DNA of 64,000 nt from Patescibacteria group bacterium (GTDB lineage: Bacteria; Patescibacteriota; Minisyncoccia; UBA6257; 2-01-FULL-56-20). Under the pieces are notes generated by a model. It did not search any database, had not been told where the DNA came from, and saw only the letters and a program-made list of their open reading frames with translations. The stretch is from positions 64,172 through 128,171 of the forward strand of contig JANLHI010000032.1 of assembly GCA_024654525.1 (NCBI GenBank). Direction: 5' to 3'. Every line of letters starts with the position of its first letter. The first letter of the stretch is position 1. Both the position numbers and the translations under genes were made by a program. This document shows positions 22,823-55,913 of the stretch, piece by piece.

Positions 22823-22931
22823 AGATATGAAATACTACTGCGCTTTCTGAAGCACGCTCTATCATACCGTATCGGTTTGCATGTGTCAAAATATTGCAGT
22901 ATCGGAAGGGGAGTATGATAATGTGGGAGGA

Positions 22932-23741
22932 ATGGATATAGATATGCTTGCGATGAGGGTGCTTAAAAGCTCTAAATACCGGCATGTAACGCCGGAGCTT
23001 GTTGCACGGCTTTGTCGGGTGGAAGTCGAGAAATATAAGGACGGGAAGGATCATGATAAAGATGTGCTCAAGGCGGTTAAAAACAAACTACATCAGGTTG
23101 TCGGAGCGTTTATCGAAGGACGCCCCGATTATAAGAAAGCCCTTCGCATAATCCGCGCCGAAGCGAAAGACATGGATGACGCGCGTGTGCGTACGGCGCT
23201 TGCCACAGCAATGCGACTGCATGCTTCTACGCGTGAACGTTTTCCATTTCTCGACACGTTTTATAAAGAGGTGTTTCGTGATGTGGTGCAACCCACGCGT
23301 ATTCTTGATCTTGCGTGCGGGTTAAATCCACTTGCGCGTCCATGGATGCATATCTCCGATGAAGCGGAATATCTTGCGTGTGATGCACTTTCTGACATGA
23401 CGGAGTTTAATGGCGCGGTATTTGAGGCGCTCGGATGGAAGGGGCATTCATTTACTCTTGATCTTTTGAGCGACAAGCCTCTTCCCACTGCGGATGTGGT
23501 GCTACTTTTGAAAACCCTTCCGTGTCTTGAGCAGGTGGAGAGCGGTGTAAGTGCACGCATTCTTGCGCGCATCAACGCGCCCCGCGTGGTAGTATCATTT
23601 CCGGGAAAAAGTTTGAGTGGGCGTGAAAAAGGAATGAAAGAAAATTATACTACTCGTTTTCTTGAAGTGCTTAAGGGAACCGGATGGATGCAGGAGAATT
23701 TGGTGATAGGGGAGGAGCTTGTATTCCTGCTTTCGCGTTAA
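22932..23741 (+). CDS. 16S rRNA (guanine1405-N7)-methyltransferase, ArmA/Rmt (FmrO) family
   Basis: Blocks recalled from ArmA/RmtB: SKKYR, KLHQ..G, LHASTRER..LD.FY..VF, ILDLACGLNPLA, VVLLLK.LP.LEQ, VSFP.KSLSGREKGM.ENY, IGEEL. Confidence 0.8.
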   Translation: MDIDMLAMRVLKSSKYRHVTPELVARLCRVEVEKYKDGKDHDKDVLKAVKNKLHQVVGAFIEGRPDYKKALRIIRAEAKDMDDARVRTALATAMRLHASTRERFPFLDTFYKEVFRDVVQPTRILDLACGLNPLARPWMHISDEAEYLACDALSDMTEFNGAVFEALGWKGHSFTLDLLSDKPLPTADVVLLLKTLPCLEQVESGVSARILARINAPRVVVSFPGKSLSGREKGMKENYTTRFLEVLKGTGWMQENLVIGEELVFLLSR

Positions 23742-24307
23742 CGCAATACCGCACTCCCGAATGGTACCGAGAATGCACGGCACCATATCCATACCTCATT
23801 GTAGTCGGTGATATCTATAGTGTCGGGGATTTCATAATTTTGACTTCCGATGTTTCCCTTGAGCGCGGCGAGTTGCGCTTCCGGTGCATAGCTTCCGTTT
23901 TTTCCGAGATATACAAACACGTCTGGGCCGTTTGTTACTTTGAAATCACCTTCAAAACGGATGTAATGCGTTGTGCCTATTTTAAGGAGCGTTGCGGTTC
24001 CTTCCGCATTGTGTCCCGCGAGTCCTATGAATGTCCCTTTTGCAAGTGTCTCAAGTACGCCGTTTTTAGGAGTGGTTTCTTGAATAACTGGTGTGATAGG
24101 TGTTTTTTCTGATATGACCGCTGTGTTTTCTTGTGTGGGCGTGGAAGTAGTCGTTGCGGTTGGTATAGATTTTGTATTTATAGGGGTCATGGCAATATCT
24201 TCCAATGATTCATCCACAATATTGTTGATAAAAAGAGGTGAGATGAGCCAGTATGCAACCACGATGATGATAACTATAGATATTCCGAGTACGATTTTCT
24301 TTGTCAT
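23738..24307 (-). CDS. DM13-domain protein with an N-terminal transmembrane anchor and a Thr/Pro-rich linker
   Basis: Transmembrane helix at residues 5-25. Linker TATTTSTPTQENT. C-terminal DM13-like GTATLLKIGTTHYIRFEGDFKVTNGPDVFVYL. Confidence 0.65.
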   Translation of the reverse strand: MTKKIVLGISIVIIIVVAYWLISPLFINNIVDESLEDIAMTPINTKSIPTATTTSTPTQENTAVISEKTPITPVIQETTPKNGVLETLAKGTFIGLAGHNAEGTATLLKIGTTHYIRFEGDFKVTNGPDVFVYLGKNGSYAPEAQLAALKGNIGSQNYEIPDTIDITDYNEVWIWCRAFSVPFGSAVLR

Positions 24308-24351
24308 AAAAACATTATTAGCTTAAATAAGATGTGATGTAGATAATATTT

Positions 24352-25173
24352 TTATGGTATCGCAATAACAAAACTTGATGAAGCAACATCTACACAATAG
24401 CCGATTGGGTCTGTACTCCTATAACCTCTCACGATTACTCTGTATTCTCCCGTTGGCACCGAATCGGGAACTTCAAACGCCACTTCCGTATCCGACCACG
24501 AATTAATGAGGGGGATAGGGATGCTTAAATCGTTGATAAGAGGGTATCCCCGAATGAATATCGAGGACGATCCCGGATTATTGGTACAGAATCCCGTACC
24601 GGTGATAGTAAATAAACGAGGGTTTGATGTGGATGTCGCTACGACGGGAGTTGAGGTGGATACTTCAAGCGTATCCAAAGTTGATGTTGCCGAAGAAGTT
24701 GCGAGAGTAAGCTCGGTTGAAGTGGCTATAGTATTTTCTGAAATATCTGTAGTAGTAGAGGTGGGCGTAGATGAAGAATTAGACATGGAAAAGGAAGAAG
24801 AAGCGAGTGTGTTTTCAAGAGAAAGAGTTGATGATGTTTCTTCTAAAGCCGTTGAAAGAACTTCTATAACCGCCGATGTTGTTTCTGTGAGTGTTGAGGC
24901 AACGGTAGAAGTTTCTACGAGAGGTTCTAAAATTATGGTTACTTGTTTGAATAAGAAAAACGGGAGTGGATCCGCTTCGATCGCAGAGAGGGGCGAGGAT
25001 GATTGAGAAGATGTTGATGATGGAGAGAGAGGTGTGGAAGTTGTTGTGGTAGAAGGGGTTGCTGTTGATGTGCTTGTGTGTGGAGGCGGGGGAGTGAGCC
25101 ACCCCCCTACAAGTATTATTGGGGCGATCAGCACGGCGATGATTTTTCCGACTATACCACTCAAGAAATTCAT
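24352..25173 (-). CDS. Stalked surface protein paralog 1: transmembrane anchor, Ser/Thr-rich linker, C-terminal two-cysteine Ig-like domain
   Basis: N-terminal transmembrane helix. About 150 aa of S/T low-complexity sequence. C-terminal FTITGTGFC...GYP...SW...PDSVPTGEYRVIVRGY...GYC, shared with ORFs 25799-26599 and 26620-27303. Confidence 0.7.
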   Translation of the reverse strand: MNFLSGIVGKIIAVLIAPIILVGGWLTPPPPHTSTSTATPSTTTTSTPLSPSSTSSQSSSPLSAIEADPLPFFLFKQVTIILEPLVETSTVASTLTETTSAVIEVLSTALEETSSTLSLENTLASSSFSMSNSSSTPTSTTTDISENTIATSTELTLATSSATSTLDTLEVSTSTPVVATSTSNPRLFTITGTGFCTNNPGSSSIFIRGYPLINDLSIPIPLINSWSDTEVAFEVPDSVPTGEYRVIVRGYRSTDPIGYCVDVASSSFVIAIP

Positions 25174-25401
25174 TTTAATTTATTGTACCTTATTTCCGCT
25201 GGTGAATCTGTGCGTGTATCACTGCATCTTCTGCGCGGATACTACCCGTCCCAAGCGGTTTATTTCCCGGGAGATGATACTCTCACTTCTTACGCTCCAT
25301 TCTCGAATCCCACGCCAATTATTGACAATAGAGCAAAATATAGTATTCTATTTTCCACGGGCCTCTGCCTCGCTGAAGCGAGGTTACGGTCTCGCAAAAG
25401 C

Positions 25402-25750
25402 GGGGATGATCGGCTTTGATGGAGCTGGAATGCATACCTGCGAGCCGAGTGTGAATCTCGCAAACTTCACAAACCTATTAACTGACAACTCAAAAGTTGC
25501 AGCTCCGGCATTCGCCTACGCGTAATGCTGCTTGCTCGCCAAAACTTTAGTGGCGGCGGGGAGGATCGTGCCATCGGTGTCTCTTCGGTGAATCACGGTC
25601 TTATATAAGGAGGCTCGTCTCATAGTGGTTACTCTGTGCCCTATGGGATTAAAGTACATGGAGTATTCGTACTACTTTGTAGCACTACGCTCGTAGAGGG
25701 TATGTGTCACCCAGTTTCAGACGAGGGTTCAATTCCCTCCATCTCCACCA
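25402..25750 (+). ncRNA. ssrA: tmRNA (ssrA)
   Basis: 5' GGGGATG pairs with 3' CATCTCCACCA. tRNA-like T-arm GAGGGTTCAATTCCCTC. Internal tag ORF GCA AAC TTC ... GCC TAC GCG TAA. Length about 349 nt. Confidence 0.85.
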
Positions 25751-25755
25751 ACAAG

Positions 25756-25784
25756 AACTCCGCGCATGCGGAGTTTTCTTTTGG
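25756..25784 (+). terminator. Rho-independent terminator after ssrA
   Basis: AACTCCGC-GCAT-GCGGAGTT followed by TTCTTTT. Confidence 0.7.
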
Positions 25785-25798
25785 TACACTATAGAGTA

Positions 25799-26599
25799 AT
25801 GATTCACTGGATTATTACCGGTATTATTTTTGTGGCGACAATGGGGACGTTTGCATGGTGGAGGAGTAATGTGCTTGACGAGCTTCCTCCTGCGTCTTCT
25901 CCAATATCCGCTCCCGCAGTAACCCTTCCTCCCATTGAAGCGGATCGTGATGCGTTGTTGCAATTTGAAGAGGACAGGTTACGGCAAAAAGCGAAGGATG
26001 CCGGCGTGGAGTTTACCACGAGTACTCCGTATACGGTTGCAGTTCCAACTTCTTCCGTGATGCAGGTGGCATCTTCTACCGCAGATGCGACAACTTCTTT
26101 TGTGGAGTCAGTGGCATCTTCGACTGTGAAATCTGTGGAAGAATCCCTTCTCACAGAAGAAGTTTTGGAGGTTGCCACGAGTACGGCGGATACTGCCAGC
26201 TCTACTGTTTCCGAAGAGATGGTAGCAAGTAGTACGGCGATAAACGAAGTGACTAGCACGGCTACTATTGCAATACCAAATCCTCCCATCACCATACCTC
26301 CTTCCGCGGCAACCTCTTCGTCTGTCATAACGCTCAGTGCGCGGCAGTTTCTCATTGATGGAGCGGGTTTTTGTAGCTATGAAAAGGGAATATCTTCGGT
26401 AGTATTGTCCGGGTACCCTCTTTCGGTGGATGTGGCGGTGTCCGGTGATTGGATTAAAGAGTGGACAACCACGCGCGTGATTTTCTTTGCACCCGATTCA
26501 ATACCTGCGGGAACTTATAATGTTACGGTGCGTGGGGTGAATAGTTGGGGGTATTGTACGGCATCCACGTCAACGCCAGCATTCATCGTAGTGCCGTAA
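25799..26599 (+). CDS. Stalked surface protein paralog 2
   Basis: Same architecture as paralog 1. C-terminal QFLIDGAGFC...GYP...EW...PDSIPAGTYNVTVRG...GYC. Start moved to an internal Met to clear the ssrA terminator. Confidence 0.65.
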   Translation: MIHWIITGIIFVATMGTFAWWRSNVLDELPPASSPISAPAVTLPPIEADRDALLQFEEDRLRQKAKDAGVEFTTSTPYTVAVPTSSVMQVASSTADATTSFVESVASSTVKSVEESLLTEEVLEVATSTADTASSTVSEEMVASSTAINEVTSTATIAIPNPPITIPPSAATSSSVITLSARQFLIDGAGFCSYEKGISSVVLSGYPLSVDVAVSGDWIKEWTTTRVIFFAPDSIPAGTYNVTVRGVNSWGYCTASTSTPAFIVVP

Positions 26600-26619
26600 G
26601 ATATTTATTGATTCACCTC

Positions 26620-27303
26620 ATGCCCTTATTTTTTAAAAATATATGGATATTGTCCGGTGTGGTGATTGTGGCAATTACGGTGATTGGTGCGGGGATATGG
26701 CAAAAGATTATTCCCCCCCTTCCTTCTTCGCCGTCTGTAATCTCGTCGTCTTCCACTGAAGAAATTTTTATCATTGATCCAATAAAACTTCAGCAAGAAA
26801 TTGAAGAGCTCAAGGCTGCGCGTGATCATATTATTACGCCGAAACCCGTACCACAGGATTCACTTACTACACAAGGGAATGTGATTCCGTTGCAAATGGG
26901 AAACAGCTCCGGTTCGACGGGAGTGACGCCCGCACCAACACAGTCTCAATATGTGCCACCACAGAGCACCACGATACCGCCTGCTTCTCCCGCGATTACC
27001 GTGCCAAGTACTCCTCCCGCCCCCCCGCAAAAATTCACCATTACTGGAAAACGTTTTTGCAGTTATGTTTCCGGTCTTTCCTCCTTGCTTATCACGGGGT
27101 ATCCCTTTACACAGGACGAAGAAGTGGATGCAGAGAATATTACCAGCTGGACTATGACAAGCATCGCGTTCCAGCTTCCTTCCTCGTTTCCTGCAGGGAC
27201 ATATAGCATTACCGTGCGTGGGTATCAGGAATATACATCACAGGGAACGAAACAGTATGGATATTGTAATGACGAAAAAGCGGGTTTTATTAAAGTAAAC
27301 TGA
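26620..27303 (+). CDS. Stalked surface protein paralog 3
   Basis: Transmembrane anchor. Pro/Ser-rich linker. C-terminal KFTITGKRFC...GYP...SW...PSSFPAGTYSITVRGY...GYC. Confidence 0.65.
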   Translation: MPLFFKNIWILSGVVIVAITVIGAGIWQKIIPPLPSSPSVISSSSTEEIFIIDPIKLQQEIEELKAARDHIITPKPVPQDSLTTQGNVIPLQMGNSSGSTGVTPAPTQSQYVPPQSTTIPPASPAITVPSTPPAPPQKFTITGKRFCSYVSGLSSLLITGYPFTQDEEVDAENITSWTMTSIAFQLPSSFPAGTYSITVRGYQEYTSQGTKQYGYCNDEKAGFIKVN

Positions 27304-27391
27304 CAAATTTAGATTTTCTGTATTTCTATTGACCGCATAGGGCTTCGCGCGTAGGGTAAGCGAAGGGAAAGAGGGGGATTGAGAAATAAAA

Positions 27392-28309
27392 ATGACAGAA
27401 TCGAAAGGAAAAACTATGATCCATTTTTCAAATGGGATGAATGCCCAATATTTCGTGGCGAGCGGGGCGCTCGCGTTTGACGGGAAGGGATGGCCTTGGG
27501 AATGGCCGTTGCGGTGGCTGGGGCTGATTGATACCGATCCTTTTGCGGTTGTGGCAAAAAGTCTTATGCGCGTGCCGTGGAAAGGAAATCTCCGTTGGTG
27601 GAAGCCGTGGGAGTGTGTCCGGCTCATCAGAGACGGTTCGGTGAATAAGGTCGGTCTCACTAATCCGGGAGCTGAGTGGTGGTGCAGGGAAATCGGTCCT
27701 CGGATAAAGATTCGAAACATTCGGCTTATCGTATCCCTTTTTGGGACTACCGAGGAGCTTGTTGAAATGACTCGGATGGTCGATGGATTCGACATCGTGG
27801 GAATCGAGGTGAATTGGTCGTGTCCGAACAAAAAACACGAAGACACAACGGGTGCAATTATCGAAGGTGTCCGTGCAGTGAAGGAAGAAACAAATCAACC
27901 GGTTATTGCGAAGCTTTCCGTGGCGCAGGACTATGTCGCGATTGCGAAGGGTCTTGTGGGAGTTGCGGAAGCGATTTCCATCAATTCCGTACCGTGGGAA
28001 ATGGTCTATCCGGGTAAACTAAGTCCGCTCCGGCGACTCGAAAAACGGGTCGGCGGCGGGGGTGGTGGAGTTTCCGGAAAGGCGGCGCAACCGTTTACAT
28101 GGGAGACGGTGCGTCGTTTGTGCAAGGAGGTTCCTGAGATGCCGGTCATCGCACCGAGTATCTGGGAATATGGTGATATTGCGAAAGTCCGCGCGCTTGG
28201 CGCAAAAGCGGAGAGCTTCGGCGCAATCTTTTTGCGCGCGCCGTGGCGACCCACTGAATTTGTGCGGCGGGAAATCAAAGAACTACAGAGAGAAAGGAAA
28301 AACTCATGA
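27392..28309 (+). CDS. Dihydroorotate dehydrogenase family (PyrD-like) TIM-barrel oxidoreductase
   Basis: Motifs NPGAEWW, GIEVNWSCPN, VIAKLSV and GGVSGKAAQP match class-1 DHODH-like enzymes. GC-rich relative to flanks. Confidence 0.6.
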   Translation: MTESKGKTMIHFSNGMNAQYFVASGALAFDGKGWPWEWPLRWLGLIDTDPFAVVAKSLMRVPWKGNLRWWKPWECVRLIRDGSVNKVGLTNPGAEWWCREIGPRIKIRNIRLIVSLFGTTEELVEMTRMVDGFDIVGIEVNWSCPNKKHEDTTGAIIEGVRAVKEETNQPVIAKLSVAQDYVAIAKGLVGVAEAISINSVPWEMVYPGKLSPLRRLEKRVGGGGGGVSGKAAQPFTWETVRRLCKEVPEMPVIAPSIWEYGDIAKVRALGAKAESFGAIFLRAPWRPTEFVRREIKELQRERKNS

Positions 28310-29433
28310 AAATCAGCGAAGATAAAAACACGATTACATTCAGAATTACGGATGACTGGCACTTTCATTTCCGACAGGGTGCGCTCCTCGAGTTCCTGGT
28401 GCGGTTACTCATTAAACATGGGTGGCGAGGGAGGGTGGTGGGGGAGCCGAATATTACACCGCCAATACTCACCGGCGACAAAGCGGTTGTGTACCACGAC
28501 CGGATAATGGGAAGTGCGGAGAGGCTGTGTTCCACGTTCAAGATGATCCGGGTAATGCAAATCACCGAACAAACCACGCGGATGATGGTGCGTGCCGCGT
28601 ATTTCGCAGGTGTCCGCATTTTCAAAGTTTATCCGCGCTGGGTGACGACGAATTCGGAAAACGGCGTGGTGGATTACACGATGATTTATCCCGCACTCGA
28701 CGAGCTTCAAAAGCTTCGGCAAGAAAACTATAATCCCGGAGAGCCGGACGTAGTGGCGCAGTTTCACGCGGAAAGTCCTCGGGAAGAAATTGAAGGACTG
28801 TTCAAAGAAGAGGCGTTTCTTACGGACGAGTGTGAGATGGGCGGTATCAATTGCAAATTCCCGGAATTGCCGATGACGATAGAACATATCAAGTCGGCGT
28901 TCGGTGTGAAGTGGATACTCCAGCAACCCGGTACGCGGAAAATCGCGGCGGGTATCACTATCCAACATATTACCAATACCGTGGATGATGTTCTGGGCTA
29001 TAGCAGGCGTAGCGGTGGACTTGTGTGTGTACATGATGGGTTTAAACCACATGCGGGACTCCGTGCGGATCGCGCCGCGGTTCAGGAAGTGGTGCTCTCG
29101 GGAAATCCGCTATTCTTTTACGCGGGTGACGGCGCGTGGCACTTCCGAAAAAAGAAGGAATGTTGCGGGGCAAGTTGCGGAGCGGCGAATACACTCGCGG
29201 CATTACCGCTCCTCATCAAGTTTTTCAAAGGAAACAATATGCTACACCGATTGGAACCGTTCACTTCGCAGTTCGGCGCGGAGTTCTACGGGTATCCGCT
29301 GAACGAAGGGACGGTGACATTCGTACGGAAGCCATGGAAAATTCCGGAGACACTTCCGGTGATCGGCGTAGTGGATGATGTGGTTGTCCCGTGGCGATTC
29401 GGCGAAGAAATGGAATGGCAGATTACGGACTAG
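28306..29433 (+). CDS. pyrC: Dihydroorotase, E. coli-type (class II)
   Basis: N-terminal DDWHFHFRQG (cf. DDWHLHLRDG). KVYPRWVTTNSENGV. C-terminal cysteine cluster KKECCGASCGAANTLAALP (cf. RKESSCGCAGCFNAP). Confidence 0.8.
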   Translation: MKISEDKNTITFRITDDWHFHFRQGALLEFLVRLLIKHGWRGRVVGEPNITPPILTGDKAVVYHDRIMGSAERLCSTFKMIRVMQITEQTTRMMVRAAYFAGVRIFKVYPRWVTTNSENGVVDYTMIYPALDELQKLRQENYNPGEPDVVAQFHAESPREEIEGLFKEEAFLTDECEMGGINCKFPELPMTIEHIKSAFGVKWILQQPGTRKIAAGITIQHITNTVDDVLGYSRRSGGLVCVHDGFKPHAGLRADRAAVQEVVLSGNPLFFYAGDGAWHFRKKKECCGASCGAANTLAALPLLIKFFKGNNMLHRLEPFTSQFGAEFYGYPLNEGTVTFVRKPWKIPETLPVIGVVDDVVVPWRFGEEMEWQITD

Positions 29434-29545: not shown

Positions 29546-31300
29546 ATGGAAAAGAGGTCGTGCCAGCATTGCAAAGAACAATTTATGGTTGATGCCGCGG
29601 ATCGGAATTTTTATGCGCGTCTTGATGTTCCGCCACCGATATTGTGCCCCACGTGCAGGATGATACGGCGGCAACTTTTTCGGAACGAACGCGCACTTTA
29701 TAAGCGTGCGTGTGATTTGTGTAAAAAAAGCGTGGTGAGTATGTATGCGCCCGATTCGCCCTACATTGTCTATTGTGTTGAGTGTTACCAATCGGACAAG
29801 TGGGATTCGATGAGTTACGGGAAAGAATATGATTTTTCGCGCCCGTTTTTTGAGCAGTTCAACGAGCTGATGCATGTGGTGCCGCGACGGGCGCTCTATA
29901 TTGATTTCGCGACAGCGAGTGACTATACGAATTGGGGTGTGAATTTAAAAAATTGCTATCTCGTGTTCGGCGGGCACCATTACGAGGACTGCAACTATTC
30001 GAGTCAAAGTTTCTATCTCACCGATTGTACGGACGTGGATTTTTGCCAGCGGAGCGAATCGTGTTACGGCTCGGTGCATCTCCGGCACTGCAGTCGTGTG
30101 CGATTCAGTTCGTTCTCCGAGGATTGTTCGGATTCGTGGTTCTTGTATGGATGTCGCAATTGCCAGAATTGTATAGGATGTACCAACTTGCGGAATGTGT
30201 CGTGCCATATTTTCAATGTCCGTTACTCAAAAGAAGAGTATGAAGCAAAAGTCAAAGAATTTTGTCTTGATACCGAAGAAGGGCTTATGCGCGTGCGCAA
30301 TAAGTTTTCACAACACACATTACAGTTTCCGCGGAAGTTTGCATGGGTACGGAATGCGACGGGATCGACCGGGGATGACCTTGATAATGTGAAAGATTGT
30401 GTCCGGTGTTTTTCCGCAACGGAGGTGGAGAATTGCCGATACTCGTTCTTTATCCCTACGCAGGCGAAAGACAGTTATGACATTGACCATGTGGGGATGA
30501 GCGCGCAACTCACGCTTGAGCTCGTAAGCGGGTTTGGGACGGAGCGCGTAGCGTTTAGCAACCGCGTGTATTACACGCATGATGCCTATTATTGCGATGA
30601 CTGTTATAACTCTGCAAACCTTTTTGGATGCGTAGGACTCAAGAAAAAAGAGTATTGTATTTTGAATAAGCAGTATTCCAAGGATGAGTATGAAAAGATG
30701 AGAATGAAAATTATTGAACACATGACGCGCACGGGGGAATACGGCTTGTTTTTCCCGCCGGAACTTTCTCCTTTTACCTATAAAGAAACAGTTGCGCAGG
30801 AATACTTTACCCTCACTAAAGAGGAGGCCAGCGCGCAGGGATTTCGCTGGAAAGATTCCGAAAAAAAGCAGTATGAGCCGACCATTCATGTGGGGGATAT
30901 TCCTGCGGGCATCGGGGATGCAAAGGATTCACTCACGGGAGAAATTTTTGAGTGTTTTCATAAAGGGGGATGCAATGAACAATGCACAGAAGCGTTCCGG
31001 ATTATCCCGCAGGAGCTTCAGTTTTTGCGAAAGCTTGGAATTTCATTGCCGCGTCTTTGTCCGAATTGTCGGCACTATGAACGATTACGAATGCGAAACC
31101 CAATGAAATTATGGCGCCGTATGTGCCAGTGTACTCGCACGAATCAAGAATCAGGAAGCGAGAATCAAGCCAGATATCAGAATACCGTCACTCATTTCCA
31201 TGGAGGCGTCCCATGCCCGAATGAATTTGAAACCTCCTACGCGCCGGATAGGAAAGAGATAGTATATTGTGAAAATTGCTATCAATCCGAAGTTGTATGA
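29546..31300 (+). CDS. Cysteine-rich 584-aa protein with paired zinc-ribbon modules at both termini and a Cys-repeat core
   Basis: N-terminal CQHC...CPTC and CDLC...CVECYQSD. C-terminal CFHKGGC...CPNC and YAPDRKEIVYCENCYQSE. The two terminal modules look like duplicates of each other. The middle region has Cys every 10-13 residues. Confidence 0.6.
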   Translation: MEKRSCQHCKEQFMVDAADRNFYARLDVPPPILCPTCRMIRRQLFRNERALYKRACDLCKKSVVSMYAPDSPYIVYCVECYQSDKWDSMSYGKEYDFSRPFFEQFNELMHVVPRRALYIDFATASDYTNWGVNLKNCYLVFGGHHYEDCNYSSQSFYLTDCTDVDFCQRSESCYGSVHLRHCSRVRFSSFSEDCSDSWFLYGCRNCQNCIGCTNLRNVSCHIFNVRYSKEEYEAKVKEFCLDTEEGLMRVRNKFSQHTLQFPRKFAWVRNATGSTGDDLDNVKDCVRCFSATEVENCRYSFFIPTQAKDSYDIDHVGMSAQLTLELVSGFGTERVAFSNRVYYTHDAYYCDDCYNSANLFGCVGLKKKEYCILNKQYSKDEYEKMRMKIIEHMTRTGEYGLFFPPELSPFTYKETVAQEYFTLTKEEASAQGFRWKDSEKKQYEPTIHVGDIPAGIGDAKDSLTGEIFECFHKGGCNEQCTEAFRIIPQELQFLRKLGISLPRLCPNCRHYERLRMRNPMKLWRRMCQCTRTNQESGSENQARYQNTVTHFHGGVPCPNEFETSYAPDRKEIVYCENCYQSEVV

Positions 31301-35812: not shown

Positions 35813-38800
35813 ATGACTGAAGATTTTTCAAAAGGAGAATTTAAATTATCGGAAGGGGATTTCGTCCTCCCGAAGGCGGAAGAGAGTATCCTTGCGTTTT
35901 GGGAGAGTAAGGAAATTTTTGCGAAATCTCTCGAAAAAACAAAAAATGGGAAGCCCTTCACATTCTATGATGGACCTCCGTTTGCAACGGGAACTCCCCA
36001 TTATGGGAGTCTGTTGAGTTCCATTATTAAAGATGTAGTGGGGAGGTATCAGACCATGAAGGGGCGATATGTACGTCGCCGATGGGGTTGGGATTGTCAT
36101 GGATTACCGATTGAAGAAATCGTTGAACGGGAGCTTGGTATTTCGGGGAAGAAGCAAATAGAAGAGCTTGGTATCGAAAAGTTCAATCAGACGTGTCGTA
36201 CTATGGTATTGCAGTATGTTGTTGAATGGAAAAAGATGATTCGTCGTATTGCGCGATGGGTGGATTTTGATAATTCATACAAGACGATGGATCGGGATTT
36301 TATGGAATCCGTATGGTGGGCGTTTAAACAGATGTACGACAAGAATCTTATCTACGAAGGGAGAAAAGTCCTTCTCTATTGTCCGCGGTGCGAGACACCG
36401 GTATCAAACTTTGAAGTGGCGATGGACAACTCGTATAAGGAAGTCACTGAAGAGGCCGTGACGGTGAAATTCAAAGTGAAGCCTGGGCAGAAAATAGGGA
36501 AGTGGGAAGTGCAGGAGCATACCTACTTTATTGCATGGACTACAACTCCATGGACGCTCCCTGGTCATGCGGCTCTCTATGTTTCAGAAACTATGGAATA
36601 CGTACGAGTAAAGCAGGGAAACGAATTTTATATTGTGGCAAAGGCTTTGCTGGAGAATATCTTTAAGGGAATATATGAAGTTTCGGAGGATATCAAGGCA
36701 AAAGATTTAGTTGGCCTTTCTTATACGCCACCGTTTGAGGTTCCCGTAATGGCTTCGCCACAGTCATTTAAGGTGTGGGTTGGAGATTTTGTTACTGCTG
36801 ATGCGGGCACCGGTGTGGTACATAGTGCGGTTGTGCATGGAGAAGAGGATTACCAGCATGGCATAAAATCGGGATTACCCACCGTTTTACTTCTTGATGA
36901 AAAGGGTCACTTCAACGAGAAGGCGCCGGAGCTTGTGCGCGGGCAGTACTTCAAAAAGGCGGACAAGATTATCATTCAAGACCTTGAAACGCGAGGACTG
37001 CTTTTTGCAAAAGCGCCGCATGCGCATTCATACCCTCACTGCTGGCGTTGCGCTACCGCGCTCTTTTATAACGCCATCCCCGCGTGGTTTGTGAATATAC
37101 AAAAAATCAAACCGGAGCTTTTGAAATCAAACGAGAAGGAAATAAATTGGTTTCCCGCGCATCTGAAATTCGGAAGGTATGCGAACAGTGTGTCGCAAGC
37201 TCCCGATTGGAATATTTCTCGGAACCGCTACTGGGGAAATCCCATTCCCGTATGGAAGTGTGAATCGTGCGGGGAAAATACGGTAGTAGGAAGCATTCAC
37301 GAGTTGGGATTAGGAACAAATACGCTTTATGGTGCACGGCATGGACTTGCGGAGAGTAATATCCGCACAATTCACAGCGGATACATGGAGAACGACCCGA
37401 TTGATCTTGTGGAAAAAGGCGTGCAGCAGGCAGAGGAGATGGCGAAACATTTGAAGAAGGGTGGGGGAGTCGATTTGATTGTGTCGTCTGACGTACGACG
37501 TACGAAGCATACTGCAGAAATTGTCGCGAAGATTCTGGGATGTCCCGTAGAATATGATGCGCGTTTACGTGAATGGAATTTGGGTATATGGAATGGCAAG
37601 CCGTGTGAAGGACTGCATCACAAACTTCCTTTTGAGAAGCGATGGACAGAGGCGCCCGAAGGAGGAGAGACGTGGACAGACCTTCAAGCGCGGATGGTGG
37701 AGGCGGTAAAAGATATTAATCAAAAACATAAAAATACGCGAATACTTATTATTAGTCATGGGGATCCGCTGTGGCTTGTGCGGAAATACTTTGGTGCGGA
37801 GACTGGATATCCGGGAGTTGGCGAGGTATTCTCGCTTAACGTCGATATTGACGACCTTCATCGTCCGGGAATTGATGCGGTAACGCTTCCATGTAAATGC
37901 GGTGGCACTGCGCGACGCATTAAAGAGATTTTTGATTCATGGATGGAGGCGGGTTCAATGCCTTTTGCTGAATATCATTATCCTTTTGAGCAAAAGGATT
38001 TATTCGAATCGCGCCTTCCGGCGCAGTTTGTTGCGGAGTATATTCCACAGACGCGTGCATGGTTTTATGTGATGCATGTCACGTCGCTCATTCTTTTTGG
38101 GAAGGCGCCCTTCGAGAATGTGGTAACTACCGGTACCGTGCTTGCCGAGGATGGTGCAAAAATGAGCAAATCAAAACGAAATTATCCTGATCCGTGGGAA
38201 GTGATTGAGCGTTACGGTTCCGATTCTCTTCGATTTTATCTTATGCATTCGCCGGTGATGCAAGCGGAGGATTTAAATTTTAGCGCGCGCGAACTCGAGG
38301 GGCTTCACCGGAAAATTGTGCTCATTTTGTCGAATGTGGAAAAATATTTTGTAACGTACGCAAGGGAGTCAGATTTCAGATATCAGATTTCAGATCTCGG
38401 ACAAGAATCCGAAAATATACTGGATCAATGGATTGTTGCGCGAACAAAAGAATTGGTAAGCGGCGTGACGGAATATATGGATGTCTACGACACCGTGCGT
38501 GCGACACGGATTATTGAAGAATATATCTCTGATCTTTCTACGTGGTATGTACGTCGGAGTAGGGGGAGGAGGGATGAGGTATTTTTTAGAACATTATGCG
38601 ATACGCTTCTTACGACAAGTAAAGTGATTGCGCCTTTCATGCCCTATCTTGCGGAGCATATCTATCACTCGACTCGTGAATTTAGCGGGGTTTTGGAAGA
38701 GTCAGTGCATCTTGTCGATTGGCCGAAAGGGAAAAAACTTACAAAAGACGAGGAGGCGTTGCTTCGTGATATGGTGCTGGTGCGCGATCTTGCGAGTAAA

Positions 38801-39250
38801 GCGCTTGCAGTGAGGAAAACGGCGGGGATTCCCATTCGACAGCCGCTCGCGACGCTGCGAATTAGAAATGGGAACATCGGGAATGATAAAAACAGAATAG
38901 ATTTTATGTGGATATTAGTGGAGGAGTTGAATGTGAAGGAGATTAAAATCGACTCATCTATTTCCGAGGATGTGATGTTTGATACGGTAATCACTCCGGA
39001 ATTAAAAATCGCAGGTTTCGTGCGCGGACTTGAGCGTAGTATTCAAGGGTTGAGAAAAACACAAGGATTTAACGTGGGAGAGGAGGCCGTGCTTTTTTAT
39101 GAAACCGCTGATGTGGATTTGGAGTCTGCGATAAAGCAGGTTGATATAAAGAAAACTTATATTAAGAGTATTAAACGTGCTCAAAAAGAAAATGCTTTAA
39201 AGCACACGTTTGAGGGTAAAGAAATAGGAATTATCCTCGAAAAAGTGTAA
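35813..39250 (+). CDS. ileS: Isoleucyl-tRNA synthetase (type 2) with an in-frame histidine-phosphatase domain insertion
   Basis: PPFATGTPHYGS (HIGH), KMSKS, CP1 editing-domain motifs. At 1145 aa it is about 180 aa longer than expected. Confidence 0.85.
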   Translation: MTEDFSKGEFKLSEGDFVLPKAEESILAFWESKEIFAKSLEKTKNGKPFTFYDGPPFATGTPHYGSLLSSIIKDVVGRYQTMKGRYVRRRWGWDCHGLPIEEIVERELGISGKKQIEELGIEKFNQTCRTMVLQYVVEWKKMIRRIARWVDFDNSYKTMDRDFMESVWWAFKQMYDKNLIYEGRKVLLYCPRCETPVSNFEVAMDNSYKEVTEEAVTVKFKVKPGQKIGKWEVQEHTYFIAWTTTPWTLPGHAALYVSETMEYVRVKQGNEFYIVAKALLENIFKGIYEVSEDIKAKDLVGLSYTPPFEVPVMASPQSFKVWVGDFVTADAGTGVVHSAVVHGEEDYQHGIKSGLPTVLLLDEKGHFNEKAPELVRGQYFKKADKIIIQDLETRGLLFAKAPHAHSYPHCWRCATALFYNAIPAWFVNIQKIKPELLKSNEKEINWFPAHLKFGRYANSVSQAPDWNISRNRYWGNPIPVWKCESCGENTVVGSIHELGLGTNTLYGARHGLAESNIRTIHSGYMENDPIDLVEKGVQQAEEMAKHLKKGGGVDLIVSSDVRRTKHTAEIVAKILGCPVEYDARLREWNLGIWNGKPCEGLHHKLPFEKRWTEAPEGGETWTDLQARMVEAVKDINQKHKNTRILIISHGDPLWLVRKYFGAETGYPGVGEVFSLNVDIDDLHRPGIDAVTLPCKCGGTARRIKEIFDSWMEAGSMPFAEYHYPFEQKDLFESRLPAQFVAEYIPQTRAWFYVMHVTSLILFGKAPFENVVTTGTVLAEDGAKMSKSKRNYPDPWEVIERYGSDSLRFYLMHSPVMQAEDLNFSARELEGLHRKIVLILSNVEKYFVTYARESDFRYQISDLGQESENILDQWIVARTKELVSGVTEYMDVYDTVRATRIIEEYISDLSTWYVRRSRGRRDEVFFRTLCDTLLTTSKVIAPFMPYLAEHIYHSTREFSGVLEESVHLVDWPKGKKLTKDEEALLRDMVLVRDLASKALAVRKTAGIPIRQPLATLRIRNGNIGNDKNRIDFMWILVEELNVKEIKIDSSISEDVMFDTVITPELKIAGFVRGLERSIQGLRKTQGFNVGEEAVLFYETADVDLESAIKQVDIKKTYIKSIKRAQKENALKHTFEGKEIGIILEKV
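37314..37851 (+). other. Histidine phosphatase (PGAM/SixA-like) domain embedded in IleRS between WKCESCGE...SIHELGLG and DLHRPGID...CKCGG
   Basis: LYGARHGLAESN (RHG motif), VSSDVRRTKHTAEIV (second Arg), ILIISHGDPL (catalytic His). The flanking IleRS zinc-knuckle halves are otherwise contiguous in type-2 IleRS. Confidence 0.75.
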
Positions 39251-50228: not shown

Positions 50229-51743
50229 ATGCTTCTAAAACTCTCAAAATTCTTTACTTATATATCGCTGTTTTCAGTACTCGTGGTGGTAAAGTCCACC
50301 TTTTTCCCTTTTATTGGAGGGAAAGCTTATTTTTTTAGAGTTGCGATTGAATTAGCGGTGGCATTCGCTTTTTTGTGGTGGGCGTTTGAAGCGTCGCATG
50401 GTGAGGCGATGCGGCGTGTGCGCACTACGTTTCGCAAACCGCTGGTAATCGCGGTGTCTTTTTTTGCGCTTGCGTTTCTTCTTGCCAGTGTGTTCGCATA
50501 CGATCCTCACGCTGCATTTTGGTCCAATTACGAGCGAGGAGAAGGAGGATTTCAAATGCTTCATTACTACGCATTCTTTTTACTACTTGCAATGTTCTTT
50601 GATACGAGGAAAGATTGGAATCGTTTTTTTGTGACTGCGGTTATTGTGACGATATGTATGGTGGGATATGGTATTGGGGCTGCGGCGCTTACCCCACATT
50701 GTCCCATTGGTACTCATCTTACGGATGCGGGACCGTCCTCGAGTATACCGCAAATATGCACGGGAAGTTCTTTGACTGCTTCAAGTGGTGCCCAATACGC
50801 ACCCGTGAATCGAAGCGTATTCGGATTTGTCGGTCCATACTTACGCATTGACGGTCAGCCTGTTGCGCCGACGTTTCTCGGAAGGATTTTCTCGGATAGG
50901 AGATTTCAAGGGTCTTTGGGAAATCCCGCATATGTAGCACCGTATCTTATGTTCGGGATATTCTATTGTCTCTATCTTGGATTCAAGGAGGGTATTCGAA
51001 AACAAAAGCGGGTATTATGGGTGGTGATAGCTGCGGTATTCTTTATATTTCTTATTCTTACTCAAACGCGAGGAACATTCTTGGGGTTGATTGCGGCAGC
51101 ATTAGTTTTTCTGTTATATCTCGCTATTCGTGGAAGCGGACGTATACGTCGCTTCTCAATCATCACACTTCTCGCTTTTTTTCTGGTTAATGCGACGTTG
51201 TTTATTGCTCATGACAATACGTTGGTGCGAAAAATTCCGTTTGTAGAGCGTTTTTATAATCTTGGTTCTGCAGAAAGTTTTGCGCCACGTCTTTGGACAT
51301 GGGGATCCGCATGGGAAGGATTCAAGGAACGTCCTGTGTTTGGGTGGGGTCCGGAAAATTTCCCTGCGGTGTTTGATGCGCATTTTGATTCGCGTCATTT
51401 TATTCCCGGGCAAGATACTGAAACATGGTTTGATCGCGCACATAGCGTAGTATTCGATTACCTTTCGGAGACGGGGGTTGTCGGATTCTTCGCATATCTT
51501 TCCATCTTTGCGTTTTTCTTCGCGGGATTTTTCGTGCGCGATCGTGTGCGCATGCTTCCGGATGTCCTTATGCGACGTGCATTGATACTTGCACTCCCCG
51601 TGGGATATCTCGTGCAGGCATTAGTCCTCTTTGATGTTCTCCCTATTTATCTCAATCTTTTTATTTTTCTTGCATTCGCCGCATGGTGGTTTGATGCGTC
51701 TCATGACAAAGTGTCGGGGGAGGGAGGGGAGAGTACTCGCTAG
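50229..51743 (+). CDS. O-antigen ligase / Wzy_C-domain polytopic membrane protein
   Basis: More than 10 transmembrane helices. Wzy_C signature region LTQTRGTFLGLIAAALVFLL. Confidence 0.65.
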   Translation: MLLKLSKFFTYISLFSVLVVVKSTFFPFIGGKAYFFRVAIELAVAFAFLWWAFEASHGEAMRRVRTTFRKPLVIAVSFFALAFLLASVFAYDPHAAFWSNYERGEGGFQMLHYYAFFLLLAMFFDTRKDWNRFFVTAVIVTICMVGYGIGAAALTPHCPIGTHLTDAGPSSSIPQICTGSSLTASSGAQYAPVNRSVFGFVGPYLRIDGQPVAPTFLGRIFSDRRFQGSLGNPAYVAPYLMFGIFYCLYLGFKEGIRKQKRVLWVVIAAVFFIFLILTQTRGTFLGLIAAALVFLLYLAIRGSGRIRRFSIITLLAFFLVNATLFIAHDNTLVRKIPFVERFYNLGSAESFAPRLWTWGSAWEGFKERPVFGWGPENFPAVFDAHFDSRHFIPGQDTETWFDRAHSVVFDYLSETGVVGFFAYLSIFAFFFAGFFVRDRVRMLPDVLMRRALILALPVGYLVQALVLFDVLPIYLNLFIFLAFAAWWFDASHDKVSGEGGESTR

Positions 51744-51757
51744 GCTTACATATTTAA

Positions 51758-52396
51758 ATGTCCCCTATACTAAAAAAAATAATTGCGATAGTTGCAACGT
51801 TGGGTCTTGTATACATCGCATATTACGGATCCTATCTTCCTTTGCATAAAGCGCAGGAATATATTAGGACTATGCAGGGGCTTGATACCGTAAGGACTAT
51901 TGATGAGCTTGAGAGGGCCTTTTCTGTGCCGCTTGATTTGCCGTCTCCCATAGGGCAAGAAGAGTTGGTAAGGAATACCGCAACAAATGTCGCTTCTTCC
52001 CTTGCGCGTGGCGTTTCCGATCCGGAAATAGCACAGGAACTTATACGATTTGTAGAGAGTTATTTTGAACCTATCGTGTTACGGGGAAGAGGAATGAGTT
52101 TTGGGCAAGATCTTTATATTTTGGGTTCGCTTCATCGCATTGCGTATGATCAAGGCAATGACCCTGTACATCTTGATGCCGCGATACGTTTCTTTTCCCA
52201 AGGACTTGATCTTAGTCCACAGCGTCCGCAGTTCCTTTATGCATTGCTTGACGTGGTGCGTCTTAAGGGGGATGGGGAAAGCGCGCTTGCGATTGCTCAG
52301 CAGATTAATGCACAGTGGCCGAATGACGGGCGTATTGCCGCGTTTCTCCGTGATCTCAACGAAGCCATTGCGTCATCCACTCCTAATAAAAAATGA
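51758..52396 (+). CDS. Membrane-anchored hypothetical protein, helical repeat (TPR-like)
   Basis: N-terminal transmembrane helix. Alpha-helical repeat composition. Confidence 0.4.
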
Positions 52397-53412
52397 AAAA
52401 AATAAAAAACAAAGTTGCACTTATTTTTGGTGTCACCGGACAGGATGGAAGTTTTTTGGCGGAGCTGTTGCTTGATAAGGGATACGAAGTGCATGGAGTA
52501 ATCCGGCGAGCTTCTACATTTAATACCTCGCGTATCAACCATATCTATGAAGATCCGCATACTACCGATAAGCGTTTTTTCTTGCACTATGGCGATCTTG
52601 CCGATGCGAACACTATCAGAAAATTGTTGTATATGATCATGCCTGATGAAATATATAATCTTGGTGCGCAATCGCATGTGCGTGTGTCATTTGATATTCC
52701 TGAATATACGGCAAATGTAACCGGAGTGGGGGCATTGCGCGTGCTTGAAGCGGCGAAGGATTATGAAGAACATATGAAAAGGAAAGTAAAGTTTTATCAG
52801 GCAAGTTCCTCGGAGATGTTTGGTGCGACACCTCCTCCTCAAAACGAGACAAGCTCATTTTATCCGCGTAGTCCGTACGCGGCGGCAAAATTATTTGCGT
52901 ATAATATGACTCGGAATTATCGCGAAGCGTATGGAATGTTTGCGGTAAACGGGATTCTTTTCAATCATGAATCCGAGCGAAGAGGCGAAACCTTTGTAAC
53001 GCGAAAGATCACGCGCGCAGTGGCGCGAATTAAAGTGGGGAAGGAGAAGAAGCTATTTCTTGGGAATCTTGATGCAAAGCGCGATTGGGGATATGCGCCG
53101 GAGTATATGGAAGCCGCGTGGAGGATGTTGCAGACCGATCGTCCCGATGATTATGTAATCGGTACCGGTGAATCCCACTCCGTGCGAGAATTTGTGGCGG
53201 AGGCGTTTCGTGTTGCGGGGTTGGGGAATTGGAAGAAGTATGTAGGGTTTGATTCTCGTTATCTTCGTCCTACCGAAGTTGAGAGTCTTATCGCCGATAC
53301 GCGAAAAGCAAAAAAGAAACTCGGCTGGAAGGCGAAAGTAACGTTTCCTGAGCTTGTGCGTATCATGGTGGAGGCGGATTGTCGCGAAGAGGGGATTCTT
53401 AATTTGGAATAA
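52393..53412 (+). CDS. gmd: GDP-mannose 4,6-dehydratase
   Basis: [27 protein letters not shown] and [33 protein letters not shown] are typical of Gmd. Confidence 0.9.
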
Positions 53413-53432
53413 TCTTTACGAAGAGGAGTGAG

Positions 53433-54389
53433 ATGTCTATGTTGGAACTTAAAGGAAAAAAAATATTAGTGACGGGAGGGCATGGATTTCTTGGGTCGCG
53501 AATGCTTGCACTTCTCAAGGATGAATATGGAATTCATCCAAGTGATATTTTTACTCCTGGTCGCGAAGAGTTGGATTTACGGTTTCGGGAAAATTGCGTG
53601 CGCGCGGTGGAGCATCAAGATGTGGTGTTCCATCTTGCGGGGACTGTCGGAGGAATAGGTTTTAATCAGGAATATCCGGCCCAGCTTTTCTACGACAATA
53701 TCATGATGGGGGTACAGCTTATGGATGCTGCATATCGCGGAGGAGTAAAAAAATTTATTACACTCGGAACGATTTGTAGTTATCCAAAATTCACTTCAGC
53801 GCCTTTTAAAGAAGAGGATCTTTGGAATGGCTATCCGGAGGAAACCAATGCGCCGTACGGTCTTGCAAAGAAAATGCTTCTTGTGCAGGCGCAGGTATAC
53901 CGTGCGCAGTACGGTTTCAACGGTATTATTCTTTTCCCCACCAACTTATACGGCCCCGGTGATAATTTTGATCTTAAAAATTCACACGTACTCCCCGCAC
54001 TTATCCGAAAAGTTATAGAGGCAAAAAAGGAGGGAAGGAATTATATCGAGGTATGGGGAACCGGAAATGTGACGCGTGAATTTCTTTATGTGGATGATGC
54101 GGCACGCGGCATCATAGAAGCCGCCATGCAATATGATAAATCCGATCCGGTAAATCTCGGATCCGGAAGGGAAATTTCCATCAAAGATCTCGTATCTCTT
54201 ATTTGCAAACTTACAGACTTTGACGGGGAAATTCGTTGGGATGCGACTCGTCCCGATGGTCAGCCTCGTCGTTTTGTTGATACATGCAGAGCTCAAAAAG
54301 AATTCGGTTTTAATTCCGCGATGGAATTTGAAGAGGGAGTGAAGCGCACTATTGAGTGGTACGAAAAAGAGGTTTCTGGAAAAGAGTAA
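53433..54389 (+). CDS. fcl: GDP-L-fucose synthase (GDP-4-keto-6-deoxymannose 3,5-epimerase/4-reductase)
   Basis: ILVTGGHGFLGS. PYGLAKKMLLVQAQVY (catalytic YxxxK). Adjacent to gmd. Confidence 0.85.
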   Translation: MSMLELKGKKILVTGGHGFLGSRMLALLKDEYGIHPSDIFTPGREELDLRFRENCVRAVEHQDVVFHLAGTVGGIGFNQEYPAQLFYDNIMMGVQLMDAAYRGGVKKFITLGTICSYPKFTSAPFKEEDLWNGYPEETNAPYGLAKKMLLVQAQVYRAQYGFNGIILFPTNLYGPGDNFDLKNSHVLPALIRKVIEAKKEGRNYIEVWGTGNVTREFLYVDDAARGIIEAAMQYDKSDPVNLGSGREISIKDLVSLICKLTDFDGEIRWDATRPDGQPRRFVDTCRAQKEFGFNSAMEFEEGVKRTIEWYEKEVSGKE

Positions 54390-54419
54390 AGTTGTTTCTA
54401 AAGTGCAATGTAGTTTGAG

Positions 54420-55913
54420 CTATATAGTATTTTCGGGAGTGGGTGTTGAAATTTTGGTATTTTTCTCGCGCAACGAAGTAAAAAGAGCCAGCATCTCCTG
54501 CGCAAACGGTTCTTTGAGGATGTAGAGCATATTCAGATACACCACTATCGATAAAATTATATTTGCGATAACCGGAAGGAACCCAATGCTTGCGTAGGTA
54601 CACAGTGACATTGTTGCGGTCGCGATGATTAATTTCCCAATGTGCGGACGAGGGTAGTTCATATGCGTTTTTACGCGAGTTAATATGAGCCCCATTACAA
54701 TCACTTGGTTTATTAATGTAGCCCATGCGGAACCGGGTCCTCCGAATGAAGGGATAAGTGCAATATCAAATATTGCATTGCTTATAAATCCTGCGAGTGC
54801 GTACCATCCAAGGATTTTTTGGTCGTTGTGCGCAAGAAGGAGATAGGTAAAGAGTAATATAAAGAAATTTGTTGAGAGTGTAAGAATCAATATTCGAAAG
54901 TTGAGTGATCCCGCTACGAACGAGCTTCCGTATAGTATGGTCATGAGCGGACCGGCAATAATGAGTCCTCCCGCAATAGCAGGAAAAATGAGCGACAGTG
55001 AAAATTGTTGTATTGCCTGACACAGGCGCAAGAGTTTTTCCTTATTTTCTCGGACGAGTCGGGCGAATATGGGGAATGCGACAAGAGGAGAGATACCAAG
55101 AAACGCGTACAGAAGAGTTATCGGTCGTTGTGCGGCGCTGTAGAGCCCTATTTCTTGAGGGGTGCGCAGGAGTCCTAGAATGAATGTATCGGTCGAGAGC
55201 ATGAGTGTTCCTAGGATGCCGGCGAGCGCGAGTGGTATACCGATATGGAGTATCTCGCGCATGGTCGCCCAGCGGATATTGCGAAAAAAGTCGCGGAAGA
55301 GCGGACGAAGAAGATAGGCGGCGGCGATTGCTCCGATTGCGGTTCCCGCCATATACCCTCCAATAAGCGCGAACGCCGTCGGTGCATATGCTATAGAAAG
55401 AAGTCCAAATGCCAATATGCCAAAGTTAGTGAGGAGATTCAGGAGTGCCTCGTATTCCATCTTTTGCCGTGCACGGAGTATGTGAATGCTGGATTCCCGC
55501 AGTGAGTCGAAAACAAGCATGAGCATTGCGAGTGGCAAAAGATGTGAGGCGCCCGGAACAGCGGATATCTGCGCGCCAAAGGCGAATGCGGCGGCAATGC
55601 TTATCGTTACAAGCACCGCTTTCATGGCGATGCCGTTCGCGACATACGAGGCGATTTTCTCCGGCGTTGCAGATATTTGTTTAAAAAGGGCGGTATCAAT
55701 ACCGAGGTCGGAAAATATACCGAGAATTGCGGCAAGACTTATTGCATAGGAAAATACCCCATATTCTCCGGCGCCGATAATGCGCGCGCCGTAAATGACG
55801 ATCCCTGCACGGATAAATCGTCCTCCGATTTGGCTCAAGAATACCCAGAAGGAGTTTTTTGCGAGAGTCTGCTTTATTCCCACATTTTCGAACAAAAAGT
55901 GTTTTATGTGCAT
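54420..55913 (-). CDS. Oligosaccharide flippase (Wzx/MOP superfamily)
   Basis: 497 aa, about 12-14 transmembrane helices. N-terminal region resembles the polysaccharide biosynthesis protein family. Confidence 0.7.
   Translation of the reverse strand: MHIKHFLFENVGIKQTLAKNSFWVFLSQIGGRFIRAGIVIYGARIIGAGEYGVFSYAISLAAILGIFSDLGIDTALFKQISATPEKIASYVANGIAMKAVLVTISIAAAFAFGAQISAVPGASHLLPLAMLMLVFDSLRESSIHILRARQKMEYEALLNLLTNFGILAFGLLSIAYAPTAFALIGGYMAGTAIGAIAAAYLLRPLFRDFFRNIRWATMREILHIGIPLALAGILGTLMLSTDTFILGLLRTPQEIGLYSAAQRPITLLYAFLGISPLVAFPIFARLVRENKEKLLRLCQAIQQFSLSLIFPAIAGGLIIAGPLMTILYGSSFVAGSLNFRILILTLSTNFFILLFTYLLLAHNDQKILGWYALAGFISNAIFDIALIPSFGGPGSAWATLINQVIVMGLILTRVKTHMNYPRPHIGKLIIATATMSLCTYASIGFLPVIANIILSIVVYLNMLYILKEPFAQEMLALFTSLREKNTKISTPTPENTI

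Follow-up and report, generated by a model that had tools for sequence, protein, structure and literature searches.

Around ssrA, the gene for transfer-messenger RNA (tmRNA), four adjacent genes, here named A to D, encode proteins that all combine an N-terminal membrane-anchor-like segment, a low-complexity linker and a single C-terminal globular domain. They lie in a window of 64,000 nucleotides (GenBank assembly GCA_024654525.1, contig JANLHI010000032.1, positions 64,172 to 128,171 of the forward strand), which is the whole stretch of DNA analysed here and from whose first letter all coordinates are counted. The 193-kb contig belongs to a metagenome-assembled genome (MAG) listed at NCBI as a Patescibacteria group bacterium, in keeping with the organism of candidate phyla radiation (CPR) type surmised in a preliminary description of the same DNA. 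Three of the proteins, B, C and D, end in a domain with two conserved cysteines, which we assign with little doubt, from profile and fold comparisons, to a divergent branch of the IPT/TIG domains (PF01833) rather than to a new kind of domain.

Gene organisation around ssrA

Gene A (23738-24307, minus strand; 189 aa; MCR4328801.1, 'DM13 domain-containing protein') encodes a transmembrane (TM) segment at about aa 5-23 (24239-24295), a T/P-rich linker at about aa 41-80 and a DM13 domain at aa 97-188 (23744-24019). The product of gene B (24352-25173, minus strand; 273 aa) consists of a TM-like segment at aa 4-26 (25096-25164), an S/T-rich acidic stalk at aa 27-183 (24625-25095; S+T 49%) and the terminal two-cysteine domain at aa 184-273 (24355-24624), with the cysteines at positions 196 and 260. 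On the plus strand follows ssrA (25402-25750; tag peptide DNSKVAAPAFAYA), which ARAGORN and Rfam (RF00023, 121.7 bits, E 3.9e-48) alike place between B and C, so that the paralogues flank the tmRNA gene as had been noticed before. Upstream of it, a consensus scan (10/12) gives a sigma-70-like promoter candidate as a pattern match, TTGACA-16-TATTCT (25322-25349, plus strand), and directly 3' of the tmRNA CCA end lies an intrinsic-terminator-like hairpin with a GC-rich 10-bp stem and a T-tract (25754-25777, plus strand).

Genes C and D both lie on the plus strand, downstream of ssrA. Gene C (25799-26599; 266 aa counted from ATG 25799) encodes a TM-like segment at aa 1-22 (25799-25864), a stalk (25865-26335) that opens with a conserved membrane-proximal helix motif, R..LL.FE..L..KAK, before turning into S/T/A-rich sequence, and a two-cysteine IPT/TIG-like domain at aa 180-266 (26336-26596). 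Gene D (26620-27303; 227 aa counted from ATG 26620) is built likewise, with a TM-like segment at aa 8-27 (26641-26700), a stalk in which the conserved motif DP..L..EIE.LK..R.H precedes P/S/T-rich sequence, and the terminal domain at aa 135-227 (27022-27300). Their products are identical to the database proteins P0002 (MCR4328803.1) and P0003 (MCR4328804.1), each recorded as 'hypothetical protein' (locus tags NUV53_04855 and NUV53_04860). The start codon of C is most likely ATG 25799 and not ATG 25766, because the latter sits inside the ssrA terminator hairpin and the NCBI record uses Met12. A mechanical open reading frame (ORF) call, which takes the first in-frame ATG at 25766, extends the gene by 11 codons too many. 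For D, ATG 26620 is most likely the start rather than TTG 26545, which overlaps C; the shorter form is the one deposited as P0003.

Hydropathy analysis assigned to each of the four proteins one strong N-terminal hydrophobic segment of 18-20 or more residues (best 19-aa Kyte-Doolittle means 1.85-2.82), followed by an S/T/P-rich tract and then the globular part, and the ORFs together with these profiles bear out the shared architecture first described for the four neighbours. When all 121 ORFs of at least 100 aa in the window were scanned for an N-terminal TM-like segment plus an S/T/P fraction of at least 0.5 over 40 aa, only A-D showed the combination; four such genes in a row are therefore not due to chance. 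The linkers of B, C and D measure about 157, 149 and 105 aa, within the 100-170 aa originally given for all four, and that of A falls outside this range at only about 65 aa, some 40 of them T/P-rich. Serine and threonine make up 25-49% of the stalks, and acidic residues exceed basic ones. With a score threshold as low as 30, Tandem Repeats Finder (TRF) detected no tandem repeats in 23700-27350, and the S/T content is thus non-repetitive. Likewise, the proteins contain no [LIV]PX[TSA]G or LPXTG sorting motif, and B, C and D stop within the Ig-like domain. Readings as serine-rich repeat glycoproteins (SRRPs) or as sortase substrates were rejected on these two grounds.

The DM13 assignment of gene A proved correct, with 69.3 bits against PF10517 (cut-off 25, E 5e-19) over profile positions 6-105 of 105. 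An orthologue with a shorter linker (60.2 bits) occurs in L003, one of the metagenome loci used for comparison; they come from relatives that show 70-87% identity to the window in the neighbouring housekeeping genes. Within L003 (3672-5015) the DM13 gene stands beside one for a TM and S/T/P-linker protein that ends in a cupredoxin-like domain (PF13473, E 1.7e-7), a pair that we regard as two putative, adjacent redox exoproteins. The same succession of TM segment, S/T/P linker and one domain is thus shared by the DM13 protein and the cupredoxin-like protein, and to judge by these sequences the format looks generic for exoproteins of this lineage. Sharing this format thus does not make the four genes a single functional unit, and A should not be lumped with B-D: it encodes a DM13 exoprotein unrelated to the other three apart from the anchor-linker format.

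Identity and distribution of the two-cysteine domain

The last 88 or so residues of B, C and D are about 42-43% identical and align with 28 invariant columns, both cysteines included. Pairwise BLASTP among the three gives E values of 1e-18 to 1e-20 with the likeness limited to the terminal domain, and a six-frame scan of the window with a hidden Markov model (HMM) finds exactly three copies. The paralogy and the two invariant cysteines, which had been proposed by eye, are thus upheld by formal alignment, the cysteines also in all 26 aligned members of the wider family.

No Pfam or NCBIfam match above threshold was found for full-length B, C and D (NCBIfam returned noise only). Full-length B has zero Pfam matches even at E<=10, although its isolated 90-aa domain passes the gathering score of PF01833 (23.3 bits against a cut-off of 20.9, E 6.4e-5, profile positions 18-70 of 84), probably because the low-complexity S/T stalk apparently triggers the bias handling of HMMER. 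Masking of this kind probably explains why public records still list two of the three paralogues as 'hypothetical'. The isolated D domain stays just under the cut-off (18.9 bits, E 0.0015), and the isolated C domain has no TIG match at E<=10, with a sub-threshold Ig_J hit (17.1 bits) as its only match. The assignment of C and D to IPT/TIG follows from the match of the family profile and not from their individual scores. When the 26-sequence family alignment was compared by hhalign with nine Pfam-delimited TIG domains, the probability was 97.8% (E 9.2e-13, 54 columns); the alignment spans TIG columns 16-69 only, and the canonical first strand (P-x-I-x-S-I-x-P) lies outside it. PF01833 is reached at E<=1 by 9 of the 26 family members, and most fall below the Pfam threshold. 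P0004, an orthologue of B from Ca. Liptonbacteria, scores 21.9 bits on PF01833 as a full-length protein and is already deposited at NCBI as 'IPT/TIG domain-containing protein'.

Structural comparison points the same way. The AlphaFold2 model built from the 26-sequence alignment (predicted local distance difference test 87.5, predicted template modelling score 0.75) has six strands of at least three residues, and the model from the three sequences has seven. The predicted fold is an E-set Ig-like beta-sandwich superposable on solved IPT/TIG domains, and the structural matches returned by Foldseek are IPT/TIG domains, in agreement with the Ig-like fold first guessed from the strand pattern. Among PDB sequences, the three-domain profile weakly matches the C-terminal half of 8co1, an 'IPT/TIG domain-containing protein', and domain D of cyclodextrin glycosyltransferase (CGTase). 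Surface glycan-binding proteins and receptor IPT domains are among the nearest relatives of known structure, and all seven of the long repeat proteins that were pulled in by the family profile and tested proved to be TIG-repeat proteins.

These results leave hardly any room for a novel two-cysteine Ig-like family unrelated to any annotated one, a view that could appeal to the failure of full-length B, C and D in Pfam and NCBIfam and to the deposition of C and D as hypothetical proteins, but that is contradicted by the isolated B domain and P0004 above the PF01833 cut-off, by the hhalign and Foldseek results and by the name that P0004 already bears. The epithet 'previously unrecognised' has accordingly been dropped; the preliminary description had itself named a match to an annotated Pfam family as the outcome that would speak against it. 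A terminal sorting function of a known kind found no counterpart either, as the three isolated domains have no match at E<=10 to Por_Secre_tail or another known C-terminal sorting domain, such as that of the type IX secretion system. Patescibacteria are generally regarded as lacking an outer membrane.

The extent of the family was determined by an exhaustive HMMER search of 1.84 billion representative sequences, which gave 335 matches; the best 150 of these 335 were examined. Among these 150, some 25 representatives have a single full-length copy of at least 48 bits, placed strictly at the C-terminus, and generic TIG repeats score at most 24 bits per domain on the family profile. Position 13, the last glycine of the GxGFG motif after strand B, separates the two groups: of 187 generic repeats, 169 have Gly there, whereas all 25 family members compared have Cys, with GxGF kept. 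The second conserved cysteine is situated just ahead of the last strand, and none of the 187 generic repeats has both. P0025 possesses an additional cysteine pair. The replacement of Gly by Cys looks like a subfamily-specific change rather than a loss of the motif. The two conserved cysteines probably form a disulfide, which is geometrically reasonable because the B-C and F-G loops share one end in Ig-like sandwiches.

All seven family members with a named organism come from MAGs of Patescibacteria or Ca. Liptonbacteria. Word-index homology searches, run with the alignments of 3 and of 26 sequences, yielded P0006 at most, the index evidently being without these MAG proteins, and a scan of GTDB genomes gave only a generic TIG match, in a Kofleriaceae MAG. 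On the strength of these sequences, we regard the B, C and D domains as a small, lineage-specific subfamily of Ca. Liptonbacteria-like Patescibacteria that is under-annotated rather than new. The domain is not confined to stalked proteins. In five representatives (P0014, P0025, P0061, P0090 and P0153) it forms the C-terminus of proteins composed of a zinc-ribbon, a TM segment, a canonical TIG domain and Trypsin_2, and in five others (P0039, P0060, P0072, P0077 and P0123) it stands at the end of proteins with an uncharacterised globular domain. It is therefore a portable terminal module of extracytoplasmic proteins. Some of the trypsin-like membrane proteases capped in this way are encoded on contigs of 0.3-0.8 Mb.

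Synteny and neighbouring genes

The surroundings of ssrA are recognisably the same in the related loci. L002 and L005 have the order D', C'', C', a gene of the HAD family, ssrA and, on the far side, B', which is the layout of the window with one extra C paralogue. L003 has ssrA followed by B' and C' and then SmpB, with the FmrO and DM13 genes 3 kb off, and L006 has D' followed by a dihydroorotate dehydrogenase (DHODH)-like gene, as in the window. In these relatives, where the preliminary description suggested looking for an expansion of the family, 2-4 copies occur around ssrA. Orthologues of B are P0004 and the genes at 7396-8232 of L002 and 7479-8261 of L003. Between orthologues, the terminal domains are 43-74% identical and the indel-rich stalks 14-44%; within the stalks of the B type, the membrane-proximal motif FF.FEP....LEPLV.TST is conserved. 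Sequence comparison thus identifies B, C and D as ancient paralogues that fall into three old orthologous groups.

tmRNA genes are classic integration sites, and we accordingly considered whether a genomic island inserted at ssrA carries the genes as a variable surface-protein cassette, as the paralogues abut ssrA and number between 2 and 4 in relatives. This reading was rejected as very unlikely: the tmRNA 3' end is not repeated in att-like fashion within 6 kb, the flanking ORFs include housekeeping genes and no integrase, and the GC content is unremarkable. Moreover, the same orthologous groups occupy the same place in relatives whose neighbouring genes are 70-87% identical, which indicates vertical inheritance. 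On this comparison we take the adjacency to ssrA as inherited synteny and not as functional coupling.

Several neighbours deserve mention. The DM13 gene adjoins a gene for an FmrO-family 16S rRNA methyltransferase (22881-23741, plus strand; PF07091, E 9.5e-53), a family of aminoglycoside-resistance methyltransferases, and the pairing is kept in L003. Downstream of D, the region 27392-29433 (plus strand) encodes a DHODH-like protein (PF01180, a weak match at E 1.7e-12) and then an overlapping ORF of 375 aa with no Pfam match at 1e-5; the pair is kept downstream of the D-type paralogue in L006. Next follows a gene (29546-31300, plus strand) for a protein of 584 aa that is very rich in CxxC, has no Pfam match at 1e-5 and is 71% identical to its orthologue in L002/L005; it is thus conserved, and possibly metal-binding.

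Farther downstream, the gene for isoleucyl-tRNA synthetase (IleRS; 35813-39250, plus strand; 1145 aa) contains a complete inserted PhoE-like histidine-phosphatase domain (PF00300, E 5e-34; aa ~500-677). The insertion, at about 37310-37816, separates two residues (489/496) that are next to each other in IleRS proteins of known structure. The IleRS orthologue in L003 has no such insertion, and the closest sequences found for the inserted domain are free-standing phosphatases of about 195 aa, some of them from Paceibacterota. A fused IleRS was not found elsewhere in the sequence index searched, which also misses the window's own proteins.

Proposed display and function, and comparison with known systems

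We propose, as a moderately probable overall explanation, that B, C and D are type-II anchored proteins that display a disulfide-stapled IPT/TIG tip with a binding role on a stalk. An uncleaved signal-anchor of 18-20 residues would hold each protein in the cytoplasmic membrane in N-in/C-out orientation. The fast-evolving, acidic S/T/P/A-rich linker of 105-157 aa would serve as a probably extended, possibly O-glycosylated spacer across the cell-wall zone, and the single divergent E-set Ig-like domain would be shown at the distal C-terminus, where, at one end of the sandwich, the disulfide is expected to fasten the B-C loop onto the F-G/G region. The terminal module would bind a ligand or target, such as the surface of a partner cell, a glycan or a protein, and would not be catalytic. 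Binding is considered most likely because trypsin-like proteases anchored in the membrane, and further exoproteins, end in this domain as well. Extracellular display of the tips is the likelier part of this proposal, and adhesion in particular is put forward tentatively.

The material for a stalk glycan could be supplied by the glycan biosynthesis locus that had been placed at 50-62 kb and was confirmed by Pfam at 50229-60402 (50.2-60.4 kb). It encodes a Wzy_C protein, Gmd (GDP-mannose 4,6-dehydratase), epimerase/reductases, a Wzx-type flippase, a DegT aminotransferase, a family 4 glycosyltransferase (GT4) and a GT10 fucosyltransferase. The Wzy_C-family membrane protein (50229-51743, plus strand) bears the NCBI name 'O-antigen ligase family protein'. 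Since Patescibacteria are not known to have lipopolysaccharide or an outer membrane, this protein may be either a polysaccharide polymerase or a protein O-oligosaccharyltransferase. The second activity is found among the Wzy_C enzymes of some bacteria, such as PglL of Neisseria and, for S-layer glycans, WsaB of Geobacillus, which prefer low-complexity S/A/P-rich tracts. By analogy, O-glycosylation of the stalks is plausible, as such enzymes modify such tracts in some bacteria and the prerequisites, a Wzy_C protein accompanied by flippase and sugar genes on the one side and S/T/A/P-rich tracts on the other, are present. The locus is accordingly viewed as a possible source of a stalk O-glycan.

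Several points weigh against the proposal of displayed binding proteins. The glycan locus lies 23 kb from the stalk genes, and its Wzy_C protein may just as well polymerise a polysaccharide. A and B clearly obey the positive-inside rule, C does so acceptably, and D and its orthologues are ambiguous in this respect. The disulfide is deduced from the conservation of the cysteines and the general proximity of the B-C and F-G loops in Ig-like folds, and the binding function from the fold and the terminal position of the domain. IPT/TIG domains, furthermore, are often inert spacers rather than binding sites.

Among the other explanations, the one that fares best, though we think it unlikely, is that the proteins are tethers internal to the envelope. 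The TIG tip would bind the cell's own wall polymer or S-layer, so that the proteins would act as struts between the membrane and the outer layer, and the same domain would be a retention module on the proteases. Against this, no Pfam match to wall-binding modules (SLH, LysM, CWB) was obtained at E<=10, and the closest solved relatives include the surface glycan-binding proteins and receptor IPT domains mentioned above. Less probable still is a secreted form, in which the hydrophobic segment would act as a Sec signal peptide and be cleaved off, leaving released or wall-associated glycoproteins. The N-terminal position of the sole hydrophobic segment would suit such a form, but with 18-20 or more residues its core is long for a Sec signal peptide, a cleavage motif of the AxA type is not seen after it, and conserved motifs come directly after the segment (WWR in the C type).

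A farther-reaching reading can be given for the three paralogues together. As the three ancient groups B, C and D have been kept together and have conserved membrane-proximal helix motifs, they might assemble into a hetero-oligomeric, O-glycosylated stalk adhesin. Its two-cysteine tip would serve host recognition in the Liptonbacteria lineage, and the same module would target the proteases to the host, the whole serving an episymbiotic CPR bacterium as a dedicated apparatus for attachment and feeding. The glycosylation would then be carried out by the Wzy_C-type oligosaccharyltransferase with a fucose/amino-sugar glycan from 50-60 kb. We judge this assembly improbable. With a membrane anchor, a flexible stalk and a small IPT/TIG tip, B, C and D are plausible surface-binding proteins.

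Host attachment of Patescibacteria outside Saccharibacteria is, to our knowledge, poorly understood, and nothing linking Patescibacteria or CPR bacteria with IPT/TIG proteins was found in the literature searched. The small, conserved and lineage-restricted set of stalked proteins thus offers concrete candidates for metaproteomics or binding studies, and the reuse of the tip on surface proteases adds weight to them. The case also shows that low-complexity stalks can hide a recognisable Pfam domain, and a subfamily HMM from the 26-sequence alignment would mend the 'hypothetical' annotation of C and D. Beyond these points, the proteins are an unremarkable example of a surface-protein design that is very common; what is distinctive is the two-cysteine C-terminal subfamily.

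Gene A is a clear member of the DM13 proteins (PF10517); in L003 the DM13 gene is not adjacent to the paralogues and has the cupredoxin-like exoprotein as its neighbour. The Wzy_C protein resembles the PglL and WsaB systems in that it adjoins a flippase and nucleotide-sugar genes and in that the stalks are low-complexity S/T/A/P tracts. Unlike PglL, it has no PglL-specific domain at E<=1e-5, its locus is remote from the stalk genes (23 kb), and the enzyme may be a polymerase. The SRRPs of Gram-positive bacteria are likewise surface proteins in which an S/T-rich stalk presents a binding region. According to PMC6973325, SRRPs are O-glycosylated on Ser/Thr and rely on an accessory Sec system. No accessory Sec (SecA2/SecY2) locus turned up in the annotated part of the window, where no search was aimed at SecA2/SecY2. 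In contrast to SRRPs, B-D have neither tandem serine-rich repeats nor an LPXTG C-terminus, are about 10-fold smaller, and carry the anchor at the N-terminus and the globular domain at the C-terminal tip, which is the opposite polarity.

The closest counterparts of the terminal domain, homologous by profile and fold, are the IPT/TIG domains represented by domain D of CGTase and amylase, the Bacteroides surface glycan-binding protein SGBP-B, the IPT domains of plexin and Met, and 8co1. They share with B, C and D the GxGF motif and the strands W-[ST]-x-T-x-[IV]-x-F-x-x-P and G-x-Y-x-V-x-V. Unlike the tandem IPT/TIG arrays, the domain of B, C and D is present in single copy and strictly C-terminal, has Cys for Gly after GxGF, and carries an extra cysteine before the last strand.

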